The notes: a model not told the origin generated them from the letters alone. Numbered from the stretch's first letter, positions 1,411-50,281 are shown. The stretch: DNA of 64,000 bases from an uncultured Clostridia bacterium (GCA_947629045.1 CANRCF010000002.1:32012-96011), one strand, 5' to 3'. Made by a program: numbers and translations.

Positions 1411-4400
1411 TTACCCTTTAAGTTTTAGCGACAATAATTTACTAATACCGTTTTCCTCCATAGTTACACCATATACTGTCTGTGCTACTTCCATTGTTCC
1501 TTTTCTATGTGTAATTATTAAGAATTGTGTGTCTTTGCAGAATTTCTTTAAGTATTCTGCAAAACGATATACATTGACATCATCAAGTGCCGCTTCTATT
1601 TCGTCTAATATGCAGAATGGTGCTGGATTAATACGCAAAATTGCAAATAATAGTGCTATTGCAGTAAATGCCCTTTCTCCACCTGATAATAGCATCATAT
1701 TTTGAAGCTTCTTTCCTGGTGGTTGTACATGAATATCTATTCCACACTCTAAAAGTTCTTCTTCATTTTCTAGTATTAATTCTGCCTTTCCTCCACCAAA
1801 TAACTCTTTAAATACTTCACTAAAGTTTTTGTTGATTTGCTCAAATTTTTCTTTAAATTGCTTTTTCATTGTTTCTGTCATCTCAGAAATTACTTTTCTT
1901 AACTTAGTAGCTGTATTTTCTAAATCTAAACGTTGCTCAGACATAAAGTCGTATCTTTCTTTGGTTTTTTTGTATTCTTCTATTGAGTCAATGTTTATGC
2001 TTCCTAGGTCTTTTATTTTGTTTCGTAATTTGTTTACTTCTTTTTGTGCCTGTGCTACATTTGCTGGTTTTTCATAGCCTTCTGTGTTGTTTGGTGTTAA
2101 TTCATATTCGTTCCAAAGCTGTTCTGTGACAAGACTTAAATCTTGTTCTAATTTTGCTTTCTTAACATCTAATTTAACTAAGCCCTCTTTTAATGTTTCT
2201 AATGTAGAAAATTCATTTGATATTCCCTCTTCTACTTTTGCTAGTTCTTCATTTTTAGAAACTCTTTCTTGCTTTAAGCTTTCTATTTTACTAGAACTAT
2301 TTGCAACCTCTTGCTTTATTTCTTCTATTTGTTTTTCAAAATTTACAATTGCTTCTTGTAATTTTTGATTTTCTTCTTCTACTGATGCAATGGTTTGTTT
2401 CTTTACTTCTATGCTATTTTGCTGATTTTGAATATCTGTATTTATTCTTTCTACCATCTCATCAATTGAGCTTTCGCTTTCATCAAATGAACCAACTGAA
2501 ATTTTAAGGTTTGTGATGTCCATATTTAAATTGTCTATATATGTTTGCTTATCCTTATTTTCTAATGCAAATTGTTCAACAACTTTGTTTAACTCTTCTA
2601 TTTCTTGTGATAAGCTTTCTATTTGATTATTCTTTTCTTCTTTTTGTTTTATGCCATCTTCTTTTTGTTTATCTATTGATACTTGCTCTTCTCTTAGCTT
2701 TTTTAATCTTTCTTCTAGTTTGCTAATTGATTCTTCTAGTGATACCATTTTTTGATTTTCCGTAGCGTAAACAATATCTATCTCTTGTAACTCTTTTTCT
2801 AGCTTTGCTGTTTCTTCGATAATATTACTAATAGATGAAGCATATTCTTCTTTTTCTTCTGTTTTTTGAGAAATTTGTTTTTCTAACTTTTTAAGCTCTT
2901 TTTCTAGTTCTTCTATTTCTCTGCTTCTTCCTAAAATATTTACAGTTTTATTCGCTACACTACCACCTGAAATAGAGCCACTAGGGCTTATTATATCTCC
3001 CTGCAAAGTAACTATTCTAAAAGAATATTTATCTTTTTTAGCAAGTGTTATTGCTGTGTCCATATCTTTTACTACAACAGTTCTACCTAATAAGCTTAAA
3101 ATAATTTGCTCATATTTTTTATTAGCTGTTACTAAGTCTGATGCGATTCCAATAACACCATCTATTTTAGTTAATCTATCTAGCTTTTTGCCTTGTACTG
3201 ATGCTATTGGCAAAAATGATGCTCTACCTAAATTATTTTGTCTTAAATATTCAATCAATTTTTTAGCATCTTGCTCTGTTTGTGTTACAATGTTTTGAAG
3301 GCTTTGACCTAAGCACATTTCTATTGCAAGCTCATATTCTTTATCTACTGAGATTAAATTTGCTAAAACGCCGTGCATTCCTTGCTTTAAGCCACCATTT
3401 CTTTCGCAAGCAATAAGTAATTCTTTTACAGTTTTATGATAGCCTTCTTTCTCCTTTTCTGTTTCTATCAAAAACTGGCGTCTTGACATCTTCATTCTTT
3501 GTGTATATGTAAGTTTATTTATTTCTTCTTCATATTGCTTTAACTTAGCCATATTTTCTTCTTTTGTTTTACTTGCTTTTTCTAATGCTGAAGCTGATGC
3601 ATTTCTTTTTCCCTCAAGCTCATAAAATCCTTTTGAAAGTTCTTGTTTATTGCCTCTACTTAAATCTAACTCAGAAATTACAGAATCTATTTCATTTTTA
3701 ACTTGTTTCTTTCTTTTTTCTAAGTTTTCTGAATTTGCATCTATTGCATTTATTTCACCCGCTAATTGATACTTTAAGTCTGTATTTTGCTCTATTTTTT
3801 GCTTTTTAGCTTCTATTTCTAGCTCTTTAGTAGATAATTTTTGTGTAAGCTCTAAAAGCTCTGCTTCTTTTTCTGCTAAATCTTTTTGAAATCTTTCTTT
3901 ATTTGCACTTAAAGAAGTTTTCTTTTCTACTTTTTGCTTTTGCTCTTCTTGTAGTTCAGTAATTCTAACATTTACTTCTTCTATTTCTTTTTCTAATCTT
4001 TCTTTATTAGTTTGGTTATTTTGTATTCTTTCCTTGCTAATTCCTATTTCAGAATTTATTTTTTCTATTTTATTTGTGCTACCAAATCCAATATTTTGCA
4101 TTTCTTCAACTTGAGTAGTTATATTTTCCACTTCTAACCTTAAAGCTTCTTTTCTAGCTTGTAAACTCTCCATTTTAGAATCTTCATCTGCTTTTTGAGA
4201 ATTCATAATTTCTTCATCTTTTAAAAGCTCAGCTAGCTTTTCTTTATATACCCCAATGTTATATACAAAAAGACCTACTTCAATATTTTTTAATTCTTCT
4301 CTTAAATTTAAAAACTCTTTTGCCTTATCTGACTGTAATTTTAAAGGTTCAATACTACTTTCTATTTCTGACAAAATATCATTTATACGAAGTAAATTTA

Positions 4401-4956
4401 ATTTTGTTTGCTCAAGCTTTTTCTCTGATTCCATTTTTCTAGTTCTATATTTTACAATTCCTGCTGCCTCCTCAAAAATGTGCCTTCTATCTTCTGATTT
4501 ATTACTTAAAATTTCATCAATTTTACCCTGCCCAATAATGCTGTAACCATCTCTACCAATTCCTGTATCCATAAATAGTTCTACAACATCTTTTAAACGG
4601 CATGGAGTTTTATTTATTAAATACGCTGTTTCTCCACTTCTATATACTTTTCTTGTAACTGTTACTTCTGAATATTCAATAGGAAGTTTTCCATCTGTGT
4701 TATCTATAACAAGTGAAACCTCTGCAAAGCCTAGTGATTTTCTTGCTTGCGTTCCAGCAAAAATAATGTCCTCTGATTTAGAACATCTAAGTAACTTTAA
4801 GCTTTGCTCACCAAGTACCCAACGGATTGCATCTGAAATATTGCTTTTCCCAGAGCCGTTTGGGCCGATAACTGATGTAATTCCCTCTTTACATTCTAAT
4901 ATAGTTTTATCTGCAAAAGATTTAAAACCTTGTAGTTCAATTCTTTTTAAATACAT
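1411..4956 (-). CDS. smc: chromosome segregation protein SMC
   Basis: Walker A GPNGSGKSN, long coiled-coil arms, hinge region, signature LSGGE and Walker B ILDEIEAALD. The likely start is ATG at 4956, preceded by AGGTGGA; the track start at 4965 is a GTG inside that RBS. Confidence 0.95.
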   Translation of the reverse strand: MYLKRIELQGFKSFADKTILECKEGITSVIGPNGSGKSNISDAIRWVLGEQSLKLLRCSKSEDIIFAGTQARKSLGFAEVSLVIDNTDGKLPIEYSEVTVTRKVYRSGETAYLINKTPCRLKDVVELFMDTGIGRDGYSIIGQGKIDEILSNKSEDRRHIFEEAAGIVKYRTRKMESEKKLEQTKLNLLRINDILSEIESSIEPLKLQSDKAKEFLNLREELKNIEVGLFVYNIGVYKEKLAELLKDEEIMNSQKADEDSKMESLQARKEALRLEVENITTQVEEMQNIGFGSTNKIEKINSEIGISKERIQNNQTNKERLEKEIEEVNVRITELQEEQKQKVEKKTSLSANKERFQKDLAEKEAELLELTQKLSTKELEIEAKKQKIEQNTDLKYQLAGEINAIDANSENLEKRKKQVKNEIDSVISELDLSRGNKQELSKGFYELEGKRNASASALEKASKTKEENMAKLKQYEEEINKLTYTQRMKMSRRQFLIETEKEKEGYHKTVKELLIACERNGGLKQGMHGVLANLISVDKEYELAIEMCLGQSLQNIVTQTEQDAKKLIEYLRQNNLGRASFLPIASVQGKKLDRLTKIDGVIGIASDLVTANKKYEQIILSLLGRTVVVKDMDTAITLAKKDKYSFRIVTLQGDIISPSGSISGGSVANKTVNILGRSREIEELEKELKKLEKQISQKTEEKEEYASSISNIIEETAKLEKELQEIDIVYATENQKMVSLEESISKLEERLKKLREEQVSIDKQKEDGIKQKEEKNNQIESLSQEIEELNKVVEQFALENKDKQTYIDNLNMDITNLKISVGSFDESESSIDEMVERINTDIQNQQNSIEVKKQTIASVEEENQKLQEAIVNFEKQIEEIKQEVANSSSKIESLKQERVSKNEELAKVEEGISNEFSTLETLKEGLVKLDVKKAKLEQDLSLVTEQLWNEYELTPNNTEGYEKPANVAQAQKEVNKLRNKIKDLGSINIDSIEEYKKTKERYDFMSEQRLDLENTATKLRKVISEMTETMKKQFKEKFEQINKNFSEVFKELFGGGKAELILENEEELLECGIDIHVQPPGKKLQNMMLLSGGERAFTAIALLFAILRINPAPFCILDEIEAALDDVNVYRFAEYLKKFCKDTQFLIITHRKGTMEVAQTVYGVTMEENGISKLLSLKLKG

Positions 4957-4994
4957 TTTTTCCACCTAACTTGCTATTTATATTATTTAATTTT

Positions 4995-5112
4995 GCTAAA
5001 AATATTATGTTTTGCAAGCACCGCTTAAGCGTCCTAAACGAAACGAAGTGAAGCGCGTTTGGAGCAACTTTATGTTGCGACAGCAAGGTGCAAAAAACAT
5101 AATATTTTTAGC
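4995..5112 (+). repeat. GC-rich structured intergenic element, copy 1 (short form, no nested hairpin)
   Basis: AT-rich inverted arms GCTAAAAATATTATGTTTT...AAAACATAATATTTTTAGC enclose conserved blocks ACGAAGTGAAGCGCGTTTGGAGCAAC and GTTGCGACAGCAAGGTGCAAA, shared with copies at 6936 and 9401. Confidence 0.85.
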
Positions 5113-5291
5113 TATATTTAAATGACTATGTATTTTATATCATTTTTCGGCAAAAAAGTAAATTGTTTTACATTTATTTTTTTATTATAATAAGCTTGTT
5201 ATAACAATTTATTTTTAAAAATACATAAAAATTATAGTAAATTTCAAACTAGTATGGTAAAATAGTATTAAAAGTGGAGAGGAATGGTTAT

Positions 5292-5633
5292 ATGATAGAT
5301 GAAAGAACAAAGAAAATTTTAATGGCAATTGTAAAGCATTGCAATATAATAGAAGAAACCAAATTATATTTTGGAGATAATTATAGCAATTTTGAAGAAA
5401 ATAGTATATATCAAAATGCAATACTTACACCAGTAACTCAAATTGGTGAATTGGTAAAACGATTATCAAATGAATTTAGACAAGAAAATAGTGAAATTCC
5501 TTGGAAAAATATCGCAGGAATGAGAGATATAGTAGTTCATAATTATGAAACAATTGACAAACTTATACTTTGGAATGTTGCTGATACAGAAATTGAAAAA
5601 CTAAAAAACTTTTGTATTAATCTTTTGAAATAA
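5292..5633 (+). CDS. hepT: HepT-like (DUF86/HEPN) toxin, predicted RNase
   Basis: RX4HXY motif present as RDIVVHNY, and the ~113 aa size fits. ATG at 5292 lies 8 nt after GGAGAGG; the track start at 5274 is a GTG in the RBS. Confidence 0.8.
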   Translation: MIDERTKKILMAIVKHCNIIEETKLYFGDNYSNFEENSIYQNAILTPVTQIGELVKRLSNEFRQENSEIPWKNIAGMRDIVVHNYETIDKLILWNVADTEIEKLKNFCINLLK

Positions 5634-5645
5634 GGAGGACTACAA

Positions 5646-5939
5646 ATGTCAGAATTAGAAATAATAAGTAAAAAGATAAAACCTGTTGCTCAAAAATATA
5701 ATCTTATGTATGTATGGATATTTGGTTCATATGCTAAAAAGAAACAAAGAAAAGATAGTGATATTGATATTTTAGTACGAACAGAAGATGTTGCAGAAGG
5801 ATTTAAAATCGTAGAGGTAAAATTTGCATTAGAAGAAGTTTTGGAAAAGGAAGTTGATATTGTTACAACAGGTAGTATAAAAGGTTCATTATTAGAAGAT
5901 GAAGAATTAGGCGAAGTTTTAGTATACCAAGCTGAATAA
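5646..5939 (+). CDS. mntA: MNT-type minimal nucleotidyltransferase (cognate antitoxin of HepT)
   Basis: GS-X9-DSDID motif (FGSYAKKKQRKDSDIDILV), 97 aa, RBS GGAGGA, and a 12-nt gap after hepT. Confidence 0.8.
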   Translation: MSELEIISKKIKPVAQKYNLMYVWIFGSYAKKKQRKDSDIDILVRTEDVAEGFKIVEVKFALEEVLEKEVDIVTTGSIKGSLLEDEELGEVLVYQAE

Positions 5940-5969
5940 AATAGTGCAAAAGAAATAAAGGAGATACAA

Positions 5970-6908
5970 ATGTTTAAAGAGAAAGTAGATTTTTATAGCC
6001 CAGTTAGTTTAAAATCGTATAACTTAGACCAAGTAATGCGTTATCAATTAGATGTATTAGAAAGATTAGATCCGTTTACAAGACGACATAGTGAAAATGT
6101 TGCTAATTTAGCTTGTAGAATTTGTGAATATTTGCATTGTACACAAGCATTTACTATTCATTGTACAATTTGCGGATATTTGCATGATGTTGGAAAAATG
6201 TTCATTCCAGTTGAAATTTTAAGTAAGCCGACTAGATTGACTGATGAAGAATATGAAATTATGAAAAAGCATACTACTTTTGGTTATCAAATGTGTATGA
6301 AAGATATTAAATTAAGACCTTATGCATTAGCTGCATTAGACCATCATGAAGCCTTAGATGGCACTGGTTACCCAAATGGTATTACTAAAAAAGACATTCC
6401 TTATGAAGCTCAAATTATACGTGTTGCAGATGAATATGATGCAATTGTTACTAAAAGACATTATACTACTCACGTTAATATTTCTGAAACGCTAAAAGAT
6501 TTAATTAAAAATGCTAAGCCTGATCCTAAATTTCTTGCTCTTGATCAACTTGCTGAAAAACGTAAAGAGGGTAAAGTTAATGGCCTTATTTTAAGAAAAT
6601 TATTTAAAGTTGTTATTGATGATACTTTATATGAAATTAGTGGAATTGTAGACTATGTAAATTACTTAGAACAACAAATTAAACGTCTAGAAGTTATAAA
6701 AGGATATCAGAAAAAAGCTGATAATTCTAATAAGGAAAAAACAAAAAATTATTATCATGAAGGTATGAGATTATTATTACAAGAGGGAGAAACCTTTGAG
6801 AATTATGACACTATATTAAATGAATATAAGGAAGCTCTTGTTAATCGTAATAATTTAATTCAAAGATTATATGACGAAATTAAGATTATTAAGAGATTAA
6901 GAGTTTAG
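5970..6908 (+). CDS. HD-GYP domain phosphodiesterase with a C-terminal coiled-coil-like extension
   Basis: HD (LHDVGK), HHE and GYP (DHHEALDGTGYPNG) motifs. RBS AAGGAG; 30-nt gap after mntA with no intervening terminator. Confidence 0.8.
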   Translation: MFKEKVDFYSPVSLKSYNLDQVMRYQLDVLERLDPFTRRHSENVANLACRICEYLHCTQAFTIHCTICGYLHDVGKMFIPVEILSKPTRLTDEEYEIMKKHTTFGYQMCMKDIKLRPYALAALDHHEALDGTGYPNGITKKDIPYEAQIIRVADEYDAIVTKRHYTTHVNISETLKDLIKNAKPDPKFLALDQLAEKRKEGKVNGLILRKLFKVVIDDTLYEISGIVDYVNYLEQQIKRLEVIKGYQKKADNSNKEKTKNYYHEGMRLLLQEGETFENYDTILNEYKEALVNRNNLIQRLYDEIKIIKRLRV

Positions 6909-6935
6909 AAATTTAAATATATAATTTTTAAAAAA

Positions 6936-7086
6936 AATATAGTTTTTGTGTAGTGGCGCGCAGCGTTCAAACGGAACGAAGTGAAGTGCGCTTGGAGCAA
7001 CCATCATATATTGAAAAAAGATGTAGATATTCTACATCTTTTTTCATAAAAAGTTGCGACAGCAAGCTACAAACAAAAGCTATATT
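6936..7086 (+). repeat. GC-rich structured intergenic element, copy 2 (with nested terminator hairpin)
   Basis: Arms AATATAGTTTTTGTGTAG / CTACAAACAAAAGCTATATT. The same conserved blocks as copies 1 and 3 are present. Confidence 0.85.
7014..7044. terminator. bidirectional intrinsic terminator nested inside repeat copy 2 (serves the HD-GYP gene and the PBP gene)
   Basis: A6-GATGTAGA-tat-TCTACATC-T6, between convergent genes. Confidence 0.7.
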
Positions 7087-7124
7087 ATTTTTTATATTAT
7101 TTACTTATTTTTAATTAAATTTTT

Positions 7125-9347
7125 CTATTTACTAAGTGTTATTTTTACTACTGTTCCTTCTTCTACTGCAGTTCCTTCAATAGGATCTTGGCTAATTACT
7201 GTTCCTGAGCCACTTACACTTAGATTTAAATTTAGATTTCTTAGTTCGGTTTTCACTTGTGATAAGCTTTTACCTATTAAATTTGGAACTTGTTTTGATA
7301 TTCTAGTATCTTCTGAGTTTGTATATAATTTTACAACTGCATTTTTCATAAGTGATGTTCCTTTTAAAGGATACTGTTCTGTTACAATTTCAGTAGAATC
7401 TGCTGATGTACTACATATAAATCCAGCATTTTCTATTATTTTTTTAGCTTCTGCTACTGTTTTATTTACTACATTTGGTAAATTTGTTGTTTTATTTGCA
7501 TCAGTATTCTCTGAACTATCTGATGGGACTTGTAAATATGGTAGTACTTCTTTTAAAATTTGACTTGCAACTGGTGCTGCAACACTACTTCCATAGTGAC
7601 CTTTCGGACCATCTGGGTCATAAAGGGTAACAAGTAACACTACTTCTGGATTTTCTGTTGGTGAAATTGCTAAGAATGATGCTGTGAAGCCTTCATCAGG
7701 ATTTCCTGGATCTGGTTCTGAAGTACCTGTTTTTCCAGCTATTGAATATCCTTTTACTTTTGCTTTTTTACCACTTCCAGTTTCTACAACAGTTTCTAAC
7801 ATATCAAGCATTGTATCTGCTGTTTCTTTTGACACTACTTGTCTTACTTGTACTGGGTCTACTGTTGTTACTGCTCCTGTATCTGTGTTTTTAATTTCTT
7901 TTACTATACGTGGTTGCATTAAAATTCCATCATTTGCAATAGCAGAGGCAGCTGTAATCATTTGAAGTGGTGTTATTTTAAATCTTTGGCCGAATGACAT
8001 TGTTGCAAGCTCTATTTTTCCTACATCTTCTAAATCCCAGAAAATAGAACTATTTGACTCTCCTGAGGTTGCTATTCCAGTTTTTTCAAAAAGGCCAAAA
8101 GCATTATAATATCTGTAACACGTAGATGCTCCTATCTTTTGTCCTAGTTGAATAAATGCTGGGTTACATGAGTTTGATAATGCTTGTCTTAGACTTTGTT
8201 TTCCATGTTTAGTTCCTTCTGAGCATCTCATTTTAATGCCTGACACTACCTGATATCCTATACAATTAAATTCATTTGCCACGTCTGGTTCTTCTATATT
8301 TTCTTCTAATGCTATTGATGCTGTAATTATTTTAAATACTGAGCCTGGTTCATATTTATCTGTTACTGCACGATTTCTATACAAAGAATAAATTGCATTC
8401 ATTCTTTCTTCTGAGCTCATTTTATCCCATTTTTCTTTTTCTATATTTATTGGCATTTCTAATGGCTCATTTAAGTTATAGTCTGGATATGTTGCCATTG
8501 CTAAAATATCACCAGTTTTTGGGTTCATCATTATTGCATTTCCGCCTCTACTACATTTATTTTCAAGGCAAGCTTGCTTTAAATATTTTTCCACAATTGT
8601 TTGAATATTAGCATCTATTGTTAATGTAATATTACTACCATTTTGTGCTGGTATGTATGTTTGATTGCTATCTGGAATAGCGCCTTGAAGTGCATCTTGT
8701 GATTCTACTATTTTTCCAGGGGTTCCAGTTAAAACATCATTCCATGCAGCTTCTAAACCTTCTGCACCTACATTATCTATATTACAAAATCCTATTAATG
8801 AAGATGCTAAATTTTCATAAGGATAATATCTTTTTGTATCTTCATCTATGTTTATTCCTGAATAGATTTCTTCTTCATTCATCCATTCTCTTAGCTTGTC
8901 CACTTTGTCTTTTTCTACTTTTCTTGCTATAACAGAATATGAGGAATTACTATGTAATTTTTCTAAAGTTTCATCATAATCTAATTCAAAAATTTCAGAA
9001 AATGTTTTTGCAAGTTTTTCTTTTAAAGCCTCTGTTTTTTCTTCATCCTTTTTGTCACCTGTATATTCAACTATATTTTTTGGCTCTACACTTACTGTAT
9101 CTACTTGTGCACTTGTAGCCAAAGCCTTGCCTGTTGAATCATATATTGTTCCACGCTTTGGGCTTATTATCTGGTTTTTAGTAGATTGGTAATACATTTT
9201 TTCTTTTAATTCCGCACCTTGCACAAATTGAATAAAGCCAAGACGAATTATTAATGCTAAAATTAAAAGCATAAAAACTATCATGGCTATTCTTAATTTT
9301 TTTGAAATTGTATACACTTTTTTTTCTTTGTTTTTGTGTGTACTCAT
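7125..9347 (-). CDS. class B penicillin-binding protein (PBP2B/SpoVD-like transpeptidase) with two C-terminal PASTA domains
   Basis: N-terminal TM anchor. SxxK (SVFK), SxN (SNS) and KTGT motifs, plus two PASTA-like repeats at the C-terminus. Confidence 0.9.
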   Translation of the reverse strand: MSTHKNKEKKVYTISKKLRIAMIVFMLLILALIIRLGFIQFVQGAELKEKMYYQSTKNQIISPKRGTIYDSTGKALATSAQVDTVSVEPKNIVEYTGDKKDEEKTEALKEKLAKTFSEIFELDYDETLEKLHSNSSYSVIARKVEKDKVDKLREWMNEEEIYSGINIDEDTKRYYPYENLASSLIGFCNIDNVGAEGLEAAWNDVLTGTPGKIVESQDALQGAIPDSNQTYIPAQNGSNITLTIDANIQTIVEKYLKQACLENKCSRGGNAIMMNPKTGDILAMATYPDYNLNEPLEMPINIEKEKWDKMSSEERMNAIYSLYRNRAVTDKYEPGSVFKIITASIALEENIEEPDVANEFNCIGYQVVSGIKMRCSEGTKHGKQSLRQALSNSCNPAFIQLGQKIGASTCYRYYNAFGLFEKTGIATSGESNSSIFWDLEDVGKIELATMSFGQRFKITPLQMITAASAIANDGILMQPRIVKEIKNTDTGAVTTVDPVQVRQVVSKETADTMLDMLETVVETGSGKKAKVKGYSIAGKTGTSEPDPGNPDEGFTASFLAISPTENPEVVLLVTLYDPDGPKGHYGSSVAAPVASQILKEVLPYLQVPSDSSENTDANKTTNLPNVVNKTVAEAKKIIENAGFICSTSADSTEIVTEQYPLKGTSLMKNAVVKLYTNSEDTRISKQVPNLIGKSLSQVKTELRNLNLNLSVSGSGTVISQDPIEGTAVEEGTVVKITLSK

Positions 9348-9400
9348 TTTTTCCTTTCATTATTACATATATTTCTTTATTTTAAATTTATTATTTCAAC

Positions 9401-9554
9401 AATATAGCTTTTGTGAAGCCACCGCGCAGCGTTCAAGCGAAACGAAGTGAAGCGCGCTTGGAGCAACCAACATACCATTGTAATAAATTGTAGAGAATCT
9501 ACAATTTATTACATAAGGTGGTTGCGACAGCAAGGTGCAAACAAAAACTATATT
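9401..9554 (+). repeat. GC-rich structured intergenic element, copy 3 (with nested 35-nt palindrome)
   Basis: Arms AATATAGCTTTTGT / ACAAAAACTATATT. Conserved blocks ACGAAGTGAAGCGCGCTTGGAGCAAC and GTTGCGACAGCAAGGTGCAAA. Confidence 0.85.
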
Positions 9555-9605
9555 GTTCAGTATATTTAATCAATCTATAATAAGCAATTATTGTTTTATA
9601 AGCAA

Positions 9606-11423
9606 TTACTGCTCATTAAAAATTTGGTCGAATTCTTCTCCATCAATTTTTTCTTTTTCTAATAATACGTTGGCAACTTTTGTAAGTTTATCCATATTAG
9701 CTTGTAATATCTCTGAAGCTTTACGGTAAGCAAAATCAATAATGCTTTTTACTTCTTCATCAATTATAGATGCAGTTTCTTCTGAGTATTCTTTTTGTGT
9801 TGCAAAGTCTCTACCTAAGAATACTTCTTCTTGGCTAGATCCTAATGTGATTGTTCCTAATCTTTCGCTCATACCATATTTTGTTACCATGCTTCTTGCA
9901 ATTTGAGTTGCTCTTTCTATATCGTTACTTGCACCTGTTGATATATCATCTAATACTAATTTTTCTGCTACTCTACCACCTAAAAGTGAAACTATATTTT
10001 CTACCATTTCTGTTCTAGACATAAATGATTTATCTTCGGTAGGACGATACATTGTGTAGCCTCCTGCCATTCCTCTTGGTACAATTGAAATTTGGTGAAC
10101 TGGGTCTTGTGTAGGTAAAAATCTACTTACTACTGCGTGACCTGCTTCGTGGAAAGCTACTAATTTTTGTTCTTTTTCGCTTCTAACTCTTGTTCTCTTT
10201 TCAGGTCCCATTGTAACTTTTACCATGGCATCTTCTACTTCTGCCATTCCAATTACACTTAAATTTCTTCTTGCAGCTAAAAGTGCTGCTTCATTTAAAA
10301 TATTCTCTAAGTCTGCTCCTGAAAAACCTGATGTATTTTTAGCGATTGTTTTTAAGTCTACATCATCACCTAATTTTTTCTTTCTACTATGAACTTCTAG
10401 AATTTGCTCTCTTGCTTTTACATCTGGGTTTGATACTACTATTTGTCTATCAAATCTTCCTGGTCTTAATAATGCTTTATCTAATATATCTGGTCTATTT
10501 GTTGCAGCAAGTACAATAACGCCTTCATTTGCTGAGAAACCATCCATTTCAACTAATAATTGGTTTAATGTTTGCTCTCTTTCATCATGTCCTCCACCTA
10601 AGCCTGCACCTCTTTGACGACCAACTGCATCAATTTCGTCTATAAATACTATACATGGTGCTTTTTTCTTTGCTTCTTCAAATAAATCTCTTACACGAGA
10701 TGCACCAACACCAACGAACATTTCAACGAAATCTGAACCACTAATAAAGAAGAACGGTACACCTGCTTCACCTGCAACAGCCTTTGCTAAAAGAGTTTTA
10801 CCTGTACCAGGGTGACCTACTAATAAAACGCCCTTTGGAATTCTTGCTCCCATTTCTGTGAATTTTCTAGGATTTTTTAAAAATTCTACTATCTCTTCTA
10901 GTTCTTCTTTTTCCTCATCTACACCAGCTACATCATCAAATGTAACTCTGCTTTTGTCTGTTGGGTTAATCATTCTTGCTCTGCTTTTTCCAAATGACAT
11001 CGTTTTTCCACCAGCACCATTTCCAGCGCCTCCGGCTCCACCCATTACTAAGAACCAGAATACAAAGAATATAATTACTATTCCAAATGGTGTAAGTAGG
11101 CTAAGTAGAACCATCCAAAATGCTTCTGAATCTTGCTTTACTGTTATTTCTCCTGTTTTCATACTGTTATTTAATGTTTCCATTAAATGATCTACACTTG
11201 GAATATTAACTTCTTTTTTGAAGTTTTCTCCTTTTAACTTTACTTCTGCTTTAGTGCCTTCTGATGATATCTTAATTTCTGTAACATCTCCTGCTTCTAT
11301 TTTTGCTACTAAATCAGAATATGCAAGCTTACTATCTGAATTTTCTAATATAGAACTTATTAGAACTATTAAAATCACACCTATTATTAGCCACATTGCT
11401 AATGTTTTAATACTATTTTTCAA
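9606..11423 (-). CDS. ftsH: ATP-dependent zinc metalloprotease FtsH
   Basis: Two TM segments, Walker [12 protein letters not shown] region and zinc motif HEAGHA. The likely start is TTG at 11423, 6 nt after AAGGAGGA; the ORF is open to 11447. Confidence 0.93.
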
Positions 11424-11574
11424 ATCAGTTCCTCCTTGTAATTTCATTTAATTATTTTTATCTTATAAAATATTTTGTTTTTAAAAATATTTTGCTTTCT
11501 TAAAAAACATTTTGTTTTCAAACAATATTTATTTTATAACTACTATTTTATTAGTTTATATTTTTTACCCATGG

Positions 11575-14966: not shown

Positions 14967-15012
14967 ACATAAATTGCTATTTACTTTGAAACATTCTCAA
15001 AGTTCCACTCAC

Positions 15013-16225
15013 TTAAATTACAAATTTCTTGATTAGAACTACTCCACCCGCTAAGATGCTAATTACTACTAAAGTTAATCCTATATATGTTGGTACACTA
15101 CCTGTTGCTACACCTAATAATACTGGTGCATCATCTATATCGTCTTCTCCTGGCTTATTATTTCCTGGCTCAGAATCTATATCTGGTGAATGTGGCTCGT
15201 TGTCATCTTTATATATTTCTGCCCAGTTTACTTTCTCTCCTAAGTTGTTCTTATTGTTTATCCATGTTAGTATGATTTCTACTTGGGCGCTCTCTCCTGG
15301 TTGCAATAGTGTATCTTTTAATTGGTCTGTTAATACCTTTCCGTCTTCTTCTCTCCATTGCGGATTATCTTTTGGATCAAATCTTAATCCTTGTGGAATG
15401 TAGTCTATTAACTCTTTTGCATAGCCTGCTATTTCTCCTTCGTTTGTTACTTTTATTACGAATTTGAATTTGACTGTTGTTTTATCTATTCTACTTCCTC
15501 TTATTTCTACTTTTGCTGGTGGTTCTGGGTTTTCATCCCCTGTATGTCCTGTCTTTGTTACTGTCGTTTTTCCACCGTATGTTACTATTGATTCACTTAC
15601 CCATTTCTTTAAGCTTAAGTCAAAGTATTGTACTTTTATTTTTTCTTCGTCTATATCGTCTTCTTCTGGCTCATCATTGTCTGGTGTAGAGTCTACATCA
15701 TCTACTGGCTCATTATTCTCATCTCTATCATCTGTTATTTCTGCTGTGTTTATTATTATTCTGTCTGATGTATTTGGCTCTGATACTTTGAAGGCTATTT
15801 TTACATCTCTATAATCTGGCATTGTCATTGTTTCTTGGTCAAATGCTTTTAATAAGTTTGCATTTTCTTCTTTTTCATTTTCTTTTGCTAGATAATCTGT
15901 TTCAATATATTTTGCTTCTTCTACATTATTTGTTTCTTTACCTTCTTCTGTATACATCTTCCATCTATACTCTACGTTTGTTTCATGGTCTGGTAAGAAA
16001 GTTAAGCCCTCTGGTAAATCATCTTTTATTTTGCTTGCATACCCTGCTATTTTTCCTTCATTAAATATTCTTAATGTATATGTTACTATGTTTCCATATG
16101 CAACTTGTACTGGATCCTTTGGATGCTCATATTTAAATTCTGTTTCACTTACCTTTGTAAATACTGGTACTCTATTTGTTATATCTGTATCATTTACTTT
16201 TGTTATGAATTTTCTTAATGCTAAA
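15013..16225 (-). repeat. ~1.2-kb near-identical block shared with 21950-23162 (3' ends of adhesin genes 1 and 2)
   Basis: Collinear at a constant offset of 6937 nt. I can see only about six amino-acid differences across ~404 residues. Confidence 0.9.
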
Positions 16226-38373: not shown

Positions 38374-38425
38374 AAAATGAACAATATAATTTTCCAAAAT
38401 AAATTATATTGTTCATTTTTTATTT
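38374..38425. terminator. bidirectional terminator (TGAACAATATAAT hairpin family) between convergent genes
   Basis: 19-bp perfect stem AAAATGAACAATATAATTT/AAATTATATTGTTCATTTT with an 8-nt loop, followed by a T-run. Confidence 0.7.
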
Positions 38426-50167: not shown

Positions 50168-50211
50168 TTTTTCCTCTTTTCTTTATTTACATTATTTTTA
50201 AATAAATTTAA

Positions 50212-50281
50212 TGAACAATATAATTTTATGTAGTAGTATGGAAATTATATTGTTCACACTATATGTTTATTATATTGTTCA
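50212..50281. repeat. TGAACAATATAAT hairpin-family element (15-bp stem plus an extra half-copy) between acpS and tatD
   Basis: TGAACAATATAATTT (50212-50226) pairs with AAATTATATTGTTCA (50242-50256). A third arm ATTATATTGTTCA lies at 50269-50281. Confidence 0.75.

Follow-up and report, generated by a model that had tools for sequence, protein, structure and literature searches.

Small palindromic repeats with a conserved GC-rich core, probably of MITE/REP-like nature, in uncultured Clostridia of the rabbit gut

Introduction

Among the small repeats of bacterial genomes, ERIC/IRU, Correia, BOX, and RUP are counted as similar to MITEs (miniature inverted-repeat transposable elements; reviewed in PMC2229807 and PMC3049150), while REP, BIME, and REPIN sequences are palindromes mobilized by RAYT (Y1 HUH) transposases, by which they are recognized as folded single-stranded DNA (PMC3733652). 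In plastids, "flip-flop" small inversions of the loop between inverted repeats have been attributed to recombination within the stem (e.g., PMC6824564). Here we analyzed a stretch of 64,000 nt from an uncultured Clostridia bacterium (GCA_947629045.1 CANRCF010000002.1:32012-96011; the window, with coordinates counted from its start), which holds three intergenic elements with a GC-rich core. They probably belong to an undescribed MITE/REP-like family of small palindromic interspersed DNA repeats of rabbit-gut Clostridia.

By comparison with ERIC/IRU, Correia, BOX, and RUP, the elements are also shorter than 200 bp, non-coding, multicopy, and intergenic, with termini that pair into a long hairpin, long and short forms that differ by an internal indel, presence that varies between relatives, and predicted folding of the transcript. 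They differ in that the arms are the least conserved part (mean pairwise identity 52%) and the core the most conserved (83-87%), in that neither TA ends nor a clear target-site duplication is seen, in having no known cognate insertion sequence, and in that the core is found inverted between orthologs. As in SPRITE, the copies lie near gene 3′ ends and between convergent genes, with a long duplex and a T-rich tract, and are candidates for co-opted terminators; SPRITE, however, is a simple hairpin with a U tract, whereas here there is a conserved, asymmetric, GC-rich core and a nested palindrome. With REP they share the palindromic structure, the location between unidirectional and convergent open reading frames (ORFs), and a GTAG before the inner stem in about 9 of 23 copies; a target-site duplication is not expected in such a case, and the replication-strand bias described below would fit a single-strand mechanism. 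Unlike REP, which are simple imperfect palindromes of 20-40 bp present in hundreds of copies, they measure 118-168 bp, with an asymmetric core of 75 nt and a modest copy number; none is a 20-40 bp imperfect palindrome tagged GTAG or CGTC, and no RAYT was found in the loci examined. Plastid flip-flops likewise have a short spacer between inverted repeats of ~10-50 bp, in either orientation in related genomes, but they are single-locus, non-repeated features of organelles, whereas the spacer here is a conserved multicopy bacterial core. Finally, in invertons (fimS, hin, and the invertible promoters of Bacteroides and Clostridioides) inverted repeats also enclose a segment found in both orientations; in contrast, no promoter, recombinase, or common recombination site was found here, nor any within-species heterogeneity in 7 assemblies.

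Copies and Architecture

The three copies in the window are the following.

4995-5112, + strand: copy 1, short form, covariance-model score 98.9 bits
6936-7086, + strand: copy 2, full form, 169.9 bits, model extent 6930-7094
9401-9554, + strand: copy 3, full form, 156.2 bits, model extent 9395-9562

A preliminary description of this DNA had reported three GC-rich segments with two conserved blocks, all in the same orientation. The coordinates were right and both blocks match exactly in a scan of the window: block 1 (ACGAAGTGAAGYGCGYTTGGAGCAAC) at 5043-5068, 6976-7001, and 9442-9467, and block 2 (GTTGCGACAGCAAGSTRCAAA) at 5074-5094, 7053-7073, and 9521-9541, every match being on the + strand. 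The chance matches expected from shuffles were 0.00 for block 1 and 0.02 for block 2. The G+C content of the core was 0.51 in copy 1 (measured from P2 to P2, the inner stem), 0.59 in copy 2, and 0.61 in copy 3, versus 0.294 for the window, in line with the earlier estimate of about 60% for copy 3 against a background under 30%. The AT-rich inverted arms agree in sequence with those quoted before, and in copy 1 an inverted-repeat search gave outer arms of 28 nt with 89% complementarity. The covariance-model search detected no further intact copy in the window. The element had been thought to lie outside Rfam, and indeed no Rfam covariance model matched at the gathering threshold over the window, while a search at E ≤ 10 over 4800-9800 returned just noise.

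An exact-pattern scan with one genome per species gave 16 further loci, all in five "uncultured Clostridia" metagenome-assembled genomes (MAGs) from the rabbit gut. The check with a covariance model that the preliminary description had proposed was run with a model built from 19 copies, and it recovered more copies, divergent forms, and remnants in related loci (designated by L numbers): divergent copies at L006:6323-6459, L012:5139-5257, L014:4124-4231, and L043:5140-5281; L003:2544-2661, which is decayed; L028:2475-2540, a remnant left by deletion; and L026:8611-8778, a copy in a relative with no more than 73% identity in PBP. Part of the invariance seen for block 1 in the first 19 copies is due to the search pattern. 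The sample amounts to about 25 copies from a handful of related MAGs, all of them intergenic and dispersed over several genomes, and the family is known here from one clade, the low-GC uncultured Clostridia of the rabbit gut. Being under 300 bp, non-coding, dispersed between genes, and polymorphic in insertion, the copies have the attributes of small interspersed repeats. PBP homologs placed the window near "Clostridium sp. CAG:567"-like low-GC Clostridia; a homolog search with a PMT_2 protein gave no close orthologs, and PNPase was too conserved for singling out the window species. The pattern scan of JGI metagenomes gave chance matches alone, located in coding regions of contigs that are unrelated and have 39-73% G+C, and that of viral contigs, plasmids, and phages gave 0 matches. 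This is a new sequence family, present in none of the databases searched, and its source is a poorly studied uncultured gut lineage.

All copies are built on a common plan, a non-coding unit of about 118-168 bp without a conserved ORF, in which AT-rich arms (P1) and an inner stem (P2) enclose an asymmetric GC-rich core and usually a nested palindrome (P5). In copy 3 the parts are located as follows.

9398-9414: 5′ arm of P1, pairing with 9541-9557; 12 of 13 P1 pairs changed on both sides across copies
9541-9557: 3′ arm of P1, partner of 9398-9414
9418-9423: 5′ strand of P2, pairing with 9534-9538
9424-9457, + strand: putative P3 hairpin, GCGCAGC (9424-9430) with GCGCGC (9452-9457), loop purine-rich and conserved
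9458-9468, + strand: TTGGAGCAACC, with the 5′ strand of P4a (TTG), the GA internal loop, and the 5′ strand of P4b
9480-9512: P5, GTAATAAATTGTAG ... CTACAATTTATTAC, equivalent to 7013-7045 in copy 2; 13 of 14 pairs changed on both sides
9520-9541, + strand: GGTTGCGACAGCAAGGTGCAAA, with the 3′ strand of P4b, the GACAG loop, and the 3′ strands of P4a and P2; holds block 2

The outer arms of P1 are AT-rich and reach 20-45 nt once extended. Every copy has them, in complementary form, and at least three sub-families can be distinguished. Some arm sequences are common to non-orthologous copies, GAACAATATAG.. to at least 7 loci and GCTAAAAATATTATG.. to 5; judged by these whole arms common to unrelated loci, the arms are part of the element. 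P2 consists of 5 bp, all of which covary (GCACC/GGTGC, GCAAC/GTTGC, GTGTC/GACAC, ACGGC/GCCGT). The inner stem GCACC/GGTGC had been ascribed to copies 1 and 3; it is present in copy 1, but copy 3 has CACC/GGTG with a bulged C. P3, a GC-rich hairpin of GCGYAGC with GYGCGY and a purine-rich loop, is the putative strand-asymmetric part of the core. P4a (TTG/CAA) and P4b (GCAACC/GGTTGC) are separated by an internal loop of GA opposite GACAG, and P4b covaries in the divergent copies, being GCAATTTTC/GAAAATTGC in L026 and GCTAGCAATC/GATTGCTTAGC in L012. The AT-rich palindrome P5 is nested within P4b in most copies; it is absent from L014b and from copy 1, where P4b is closed by a loop of 5 nt. A "short" sub-family is without ACGAAGTGAA in the P3 loop, and at this position mini-hairpins of variable length are found according to the copy (AC-GAA-GT, GC-GTAA-GC, GCTAC-GAA-GTAGC, or GTGGC-TT-GCCAC). 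It was also possible to see that the P3 loop (window 9436-9451, L036:3470-3500, L043:5200-5240) carries either 1-3 RYGAA pentamers or a GAA/GTAA mini-hairpin, a content that varies even between orthologs whose flanks are 95% identical.

Presence and Orientation at Orthologous Sites

Insertion polymorphism at orthologous sites was found in two clean cases. The site of copy 1 is empty in L028, where the flanks are about 99% identical, and the additional sequence of the window there, enclosed by two TAAT, measures 112 nt; a TAATATTTTCAAT already present at the empty site is the counterpart of the distal 3′ arm of copy 1, and the 5′ arm is absent from that site. The site of L006a is empty in L043, where two convergent genes lie 12 nt apart with no hairpin between them. 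At the pnp and HD-GYP sites, relatives at a greater distance have no copy either; in L029-L035 and L040-L042 the intergenic DNA was too diverged to set the boundaries of empty sites. Loss of the core is seen in the L028 ortholog of copy 2, in which it was deleted between GCAG microhomologies, so that a plain hairpin is now present. L036 and L043, in turn, differ by whole blocks (GTGGG versus GACAA, and a different mini-hairpin), and both variants occur in other copies, which indicates conversion between copies. The preliminary description had left the choice between a new non-coding RNA (ncRNA) family and a MITE/REP-like element; the presence/absence polymorphism, the deletion remnants, and the exchange of blocks favor the latter. 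The asymmetric core is still compatible with the RNA option.

The orientation of the core is variable as well. In three of four orthologous comparisons it is reverse-complemented between colinear flanks.

ftsH-PBP site: window copy 3 versus L008 and L028, flanks 86-89% identical, core inverted
Unnamed site: L003 versus L004, flanks 95-96% identical, core inverted
pnp-GT2 site: L036 versus L043, flanks 95% identical, core inverted

In the fourth pair, L001/L010, the core is not inverted. In the flip of copy 3 a C/T mismatch of the arm moves together with the core, which locates the exchange point within the ~10 outermost bp of the arm. Both the inversion of the core and the co-evolution of the arms would be the product of recombination or gene conversion, either between the arms of one element or with other copies; such a process would act at the DNA level and would not need selection on an RNA fold.

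Base Pairing and the RNA Alternative

In a model-based alignment of 23 copies, 97.6% of the cells were paired versus 75% in shuffles, and 33 of 47 pairs had changed on both sides. Pairing-preserving substitutions had been put forward as the deciding test; they are abundant, but they cannot separate an RNA from a DNA palindrome. The kind of pairs is more informative. As a rule, G·U is far better tolerated than A·C in RNA helices under thermodynamic selection. The cells of P1, P2, P4b, and P5 taken together comprised 739 Watson-Crick, 5 G·U, and 4 A·C, and considering that these symmetric stems are almost purely Watson-Crick, their complementarity is most simply interpreted as maintained in DNA. 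The two strands also fold about equally (-44.1 versus -40.4 kcal/mol for copy 1, -59.7 versus -62.4 kcal/mol for copy 3), with folding z-scores of -5.6 to -8.8 and little difference between strands. Since the arms recombine, as deduced from the cores flipped between orthologs, their concerted evolution accounts for the covariation without RNA selection, and the L036/L043 orthologs show two paired arm changes at just 5% flank divergence. The lack of G·U in the stems, the equal folding of both strands, and the recombining arms all argue for a symmetry at the DNA level. The elements are thus a natural example of how recombining palindrome arms mimic RNA covariation, and a caution for covariation-based ncRNA discovery.

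P3 behaves in another way. Its cells were 96 Watson-Crick, 37 G·U, and 0 A·C, with changes only from G-C to G·U and no pair changed on both sides; two variable P3 columns are free positions in the search pattern. This wobble pattern fits a helix of the motif strand, but there is a competing helix, CAARCG/CGYTTG, whose pairs are all formed in 15 of 23 copies on the opposite strand and in 8 of 23 on the motif strand, so that from the sequences the strand assignment is ambiguous.

Taking these data into account, we weighed the possibility that the core is a structured ncRNA, either a multicopy RNA gene or a cis module (a processing/stability element or a ribozyme), and the arms its mere closing stem. 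Consistent with such an RNA are the multi-stem architecture retained over genus-level divergence, the P3b and P5 hairpins of variable length at fixed positions, the compensatory P4b changes in L026 and L012, the restriction of P3 on the motif strand to G-C to G·U changes, a core far more conserved than the arms, and a non-random orientation of the copies. We nevertheless consider it unlikely, given that nothing in Rfam matched even at E ≤ 10, no promoter or terminator was consistently found, and the core is flipped relative to its neighbors in those three of four comparisons. In L028, moreover, the core was deleted and the hairpin retained; the covarying stems are without the G·U pairs that RNA helices would be expected to show; at co-directional sites the motif strand usually runs antisense to the genes around it (10 versus 3 sense); and the better pairing of the competing helix on the opposite strand leaves the strand ambiguous. 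The elements look like selfish, mobile sequences at gene ends and not like a conventional RNA gene.

Strand Bias and Mode of Spread

Several observations weigh against the interpretation as a MITE/REP-like repeat. The "empty" sites could be precise deletions instead of the ancestral state. The target-site repeat comes down to TAAT at copy 1 and possibly TTA at L036, with flanks that are AT-rich and partly palindromic, and the exact limits of insertions are uncertain in AT-rich DNA. The 459 kb of loci examined yielded neither a transposase or recombinase nor a full-length autonomous element. The terminal repeats are the least conserved part, the reverse of a classical MITE; conservation of the core instead of the termini, together with the strand bias, is a departure from that class. 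The core also has RNA-like features, namely, a three-way junction, optional hairpins with GAA or GTAA loops at fixed positions, and a P3 helix whose 37 G·U cells without A·C are those of a structured RNA. A consensus scan found no canonical intrinsic terminator in 4800-9800, and a terminator function would be deduced from position only. To these is added the strand bias itself: in 21 of 25 copies (binomial p = 0.0009), and in 15 of 16 non-polymorphic sites, convergent sites included, the motif strand is the one locally rich in C, the exceptions being mostly flipped orthologs. Such a bias is not expected under frequent neutral flipping. Within the same 459 kb, the search for an autonomous element with a gene between the two blocks gave no solo half-elements, and tblastn with one IS200 TnpA query gave no Y1 transposase.

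Candidate causes of the bias are a strand-specific, replication-coupled copying or selection against one orientation. IS200/IS605 and REP-RAYT elements are copied in a strand-specific, replication-coupled manner. Considering that the core is conserved at 83-87% and the arms at 52%, and that the strand is biased, the core may be the part recognized by the copying machinery, perhaps while folded as a single strand at the replication fork. A stronger form of this idea, which we hold to be doubtful, makes the core a folded single-strand module, of DNA or RNA, that directs strand-specific, replication-coupled copying by some enzyme; the three-way junction with its conserved purine-rich loops would be recognized, that is, the loop and not the termini. 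This would explain the conserved loop, the drifting termini, and an orientation shared by 21 of 25 copies despite frequent flipping, and, if true, the module would represent a new class of hairpin-borne bacterial mobile element. Alternatively, and again with doubt, the core may be a self-processing or otherwise functional new RNA carried by the repeat. The conserved loop, the fast-evolving termini, and the replication-strand bias are a hint of mobilization unlike that of classical MITEs.

Bare Hairpins, Other Rivals, and Rejected Candidates

Three hairpins of the window have the outer-arm sequence TGAACAATATA in common and no core.

27322-27362: bare hairpin behind a gene, AGAACAATATAATA / TATTATATTGTTCT, with A-run and T-run flanks
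38375-38420: bare hairpin between convergent genes, outer arms of the same sequence, with A-run and T-run flanks
50209-50259: probable core-deleted remnant, TGAACAATATAATTT arms, loop TATGTAG..TATGG like the inner-arm ends of intact copies

The last one is probably a core-deleted remnant by its loop sequence, its homology to intact copies having been judged by eye; an extra half arm lies after it, at 50270-50281. When transcribed, a long hairpin with A and T runs would be a bidirectional terminator or a 3′-end stabilizer. The position behind genes, the A/T runs, and the persistence of core-less hairpins suggest an incidental or co-opted bidirectional terminator-like role, and such a use would explain why core-less remnants persist behind genes.

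The same hairpins admit another reading, according to which the core with the innermost arm is alone mobile and inserts into the loops of existing terminator hairpins, the outer arms being host terminators. Bare hairpins with the same outer arms stand at terminator positions in the window, A and T runs flank the arms, and the empty copy 1 site already has the distal 3′ arm, as TAATATTTTCAAT. The empty L043 site, however, is without any hairpin and the empty L028 site without the 5′ arm, unrelated loci share whole arms, and at least 2 bare hairpins are demonstrably or probably deletion products; we thus regard this reading as improbable.

A third reading is that of an inverton, in which a site-specific recombinase would flip the core between the arms and switch the neighboring genes. 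Inverted repeats do surround a segment present in both orientations at three loci, and some arm or core sequences resemble -35/-10 hexamers (e.g., TTGCGA-17-CATAAT in copy 1). On the other side, the orientation is the same across 3 assemblies (3 samples) of the window species at 3 sites and across 4 assemblies (4 samples) of the bin14 species at 2 sites. These seven same-species assemblies are consensus sequences; the repetition of the orientation in them makes it unlikely that the flips are assembly artefacts and disfavors a fast phase variation. Moreover, no promoter is conserved across copies, the spacing of the hexamers being 21 nt in most; the arms differ between copies, which leaves no common recombinase site; and no recombinase gene is found among the neighbors. 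A 100-nt invertible segment is also very short for protein-mediated looping, and overall an inverton is very improbable.

Other candidates were rejected. A small ORF in the core (GGAG-N7-ATG, 17 aa, in copy 1) was not conserved elsewhere by eye; the sigma-70 promoter TTGCGA-17-CATAAT is present in copy 1 and L011 alone, with the 21-nt spacing elsewhere and no enrichment; a sigma-54 site had the wrong GG/GC spacing (by eye); and a kink-turn in the P4 internal loop had the wrong order of GA and bulge, the loop varying among GACAG, GACAA, GTGGG, and GACAC (by eye). The likeness to an integron attC site falls in the variable P2 (by eye); GAGCAAC/GTTGCGA match R″/R′ (RYYYAAC/GTTRRRY) at AAC/GTT only and lie inside the outer helices, and the copies flank core genes with no cassette array. 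The likeness to a Xer dif site falls in P2 as well (by eye). A CGTTC/GAACG hairpin within the P3 loop is lost in variant copies.

Gene Neighborhood and Rearrangement

The genes around the three copies are the following.

1411-4965, - strand: smc
5274-6908, + strand: HepT/MntA pair plus HD-GYP
7125-9347, - strand: SpoVD-like PBP, bounded by copies 2 and 3
9606-11447, - strand: ftsH

The gene tables confirmed that the neighbors differ by copy, as described before. Copy 1 lies 30 nt upstream of smc, with the HepT gene divergent on its other side; copy 2 is flanked by the convergent HD-GYP and PBP genes, and copy 3 by ftsH and PBP, which are co-directional. Among the 24 copies counted, the setting is convergent in 9, co-directional in 13 (motif strand antisense in 10, sense in 3), and divergent in 2, the distance to the neighboring ORFs being mostly 8-60 nt. 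The neighbors are housekeeping genes (PNPase, Pol I, pseudouridine synthases, Sua5, glycosyltransferases), with no transposase or recombinase among the genes next to the copies.

In four outgroup genomes (L026, L029, L031, L034) the HD-GYP and PBP genes are adjacent, co-directional, and convergent with ftsH. By comparison with them, the PBP gene is inverted in the window lineage, and copies 2 and 3 are located exactly at both breakpoints; copy 1 stands between smc and the former smc upstream region. Since each element holds both arm orientations, any two elements with similar arms would act as inverted repeats for rearrangement. The elements mark rearrangement points, with an essential PBP inverted between two copies and a toxin-antitoxin cassette between two others, and, as one of them sits in the smc 5′ leader, they probably shape gene order and transcript ends.

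Copy 1 (window 4966-5130, - strand) was inserted upstream of the smc ribosome-binding site, at a distance of about 20-30 nt, so that transcription of smc must either pass through the element or start from it; a weak promoter-like TAGTCA-18-TATTAT is seen on the - strand in an arm of copy 1. The HepT/MntA toxin-antitoxin pair and HD-GYP (5274-6908) are + strand genes in - strand surroundings, with copy 1 on one side and copy 2 on the other, and the outgroups have amidohydrolase genes where the HepT/MntA pair stands.

The copies are often paired or tripled at distances of 1-4 kb, with a second copy in 4 of 16 8-kb loci (L003, L006, L012, L014), and the window has its three copies within 4.6 kb (4995-9554) and none in the other 59 kb. 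This clustering may be due to local spread or to local rearrangement. A BLAST comparison of L024 with the window also brought out direct repeats ~96% identical at 15011-15347 and 21948-22284, corresponding to the 3′ ends of two genes.

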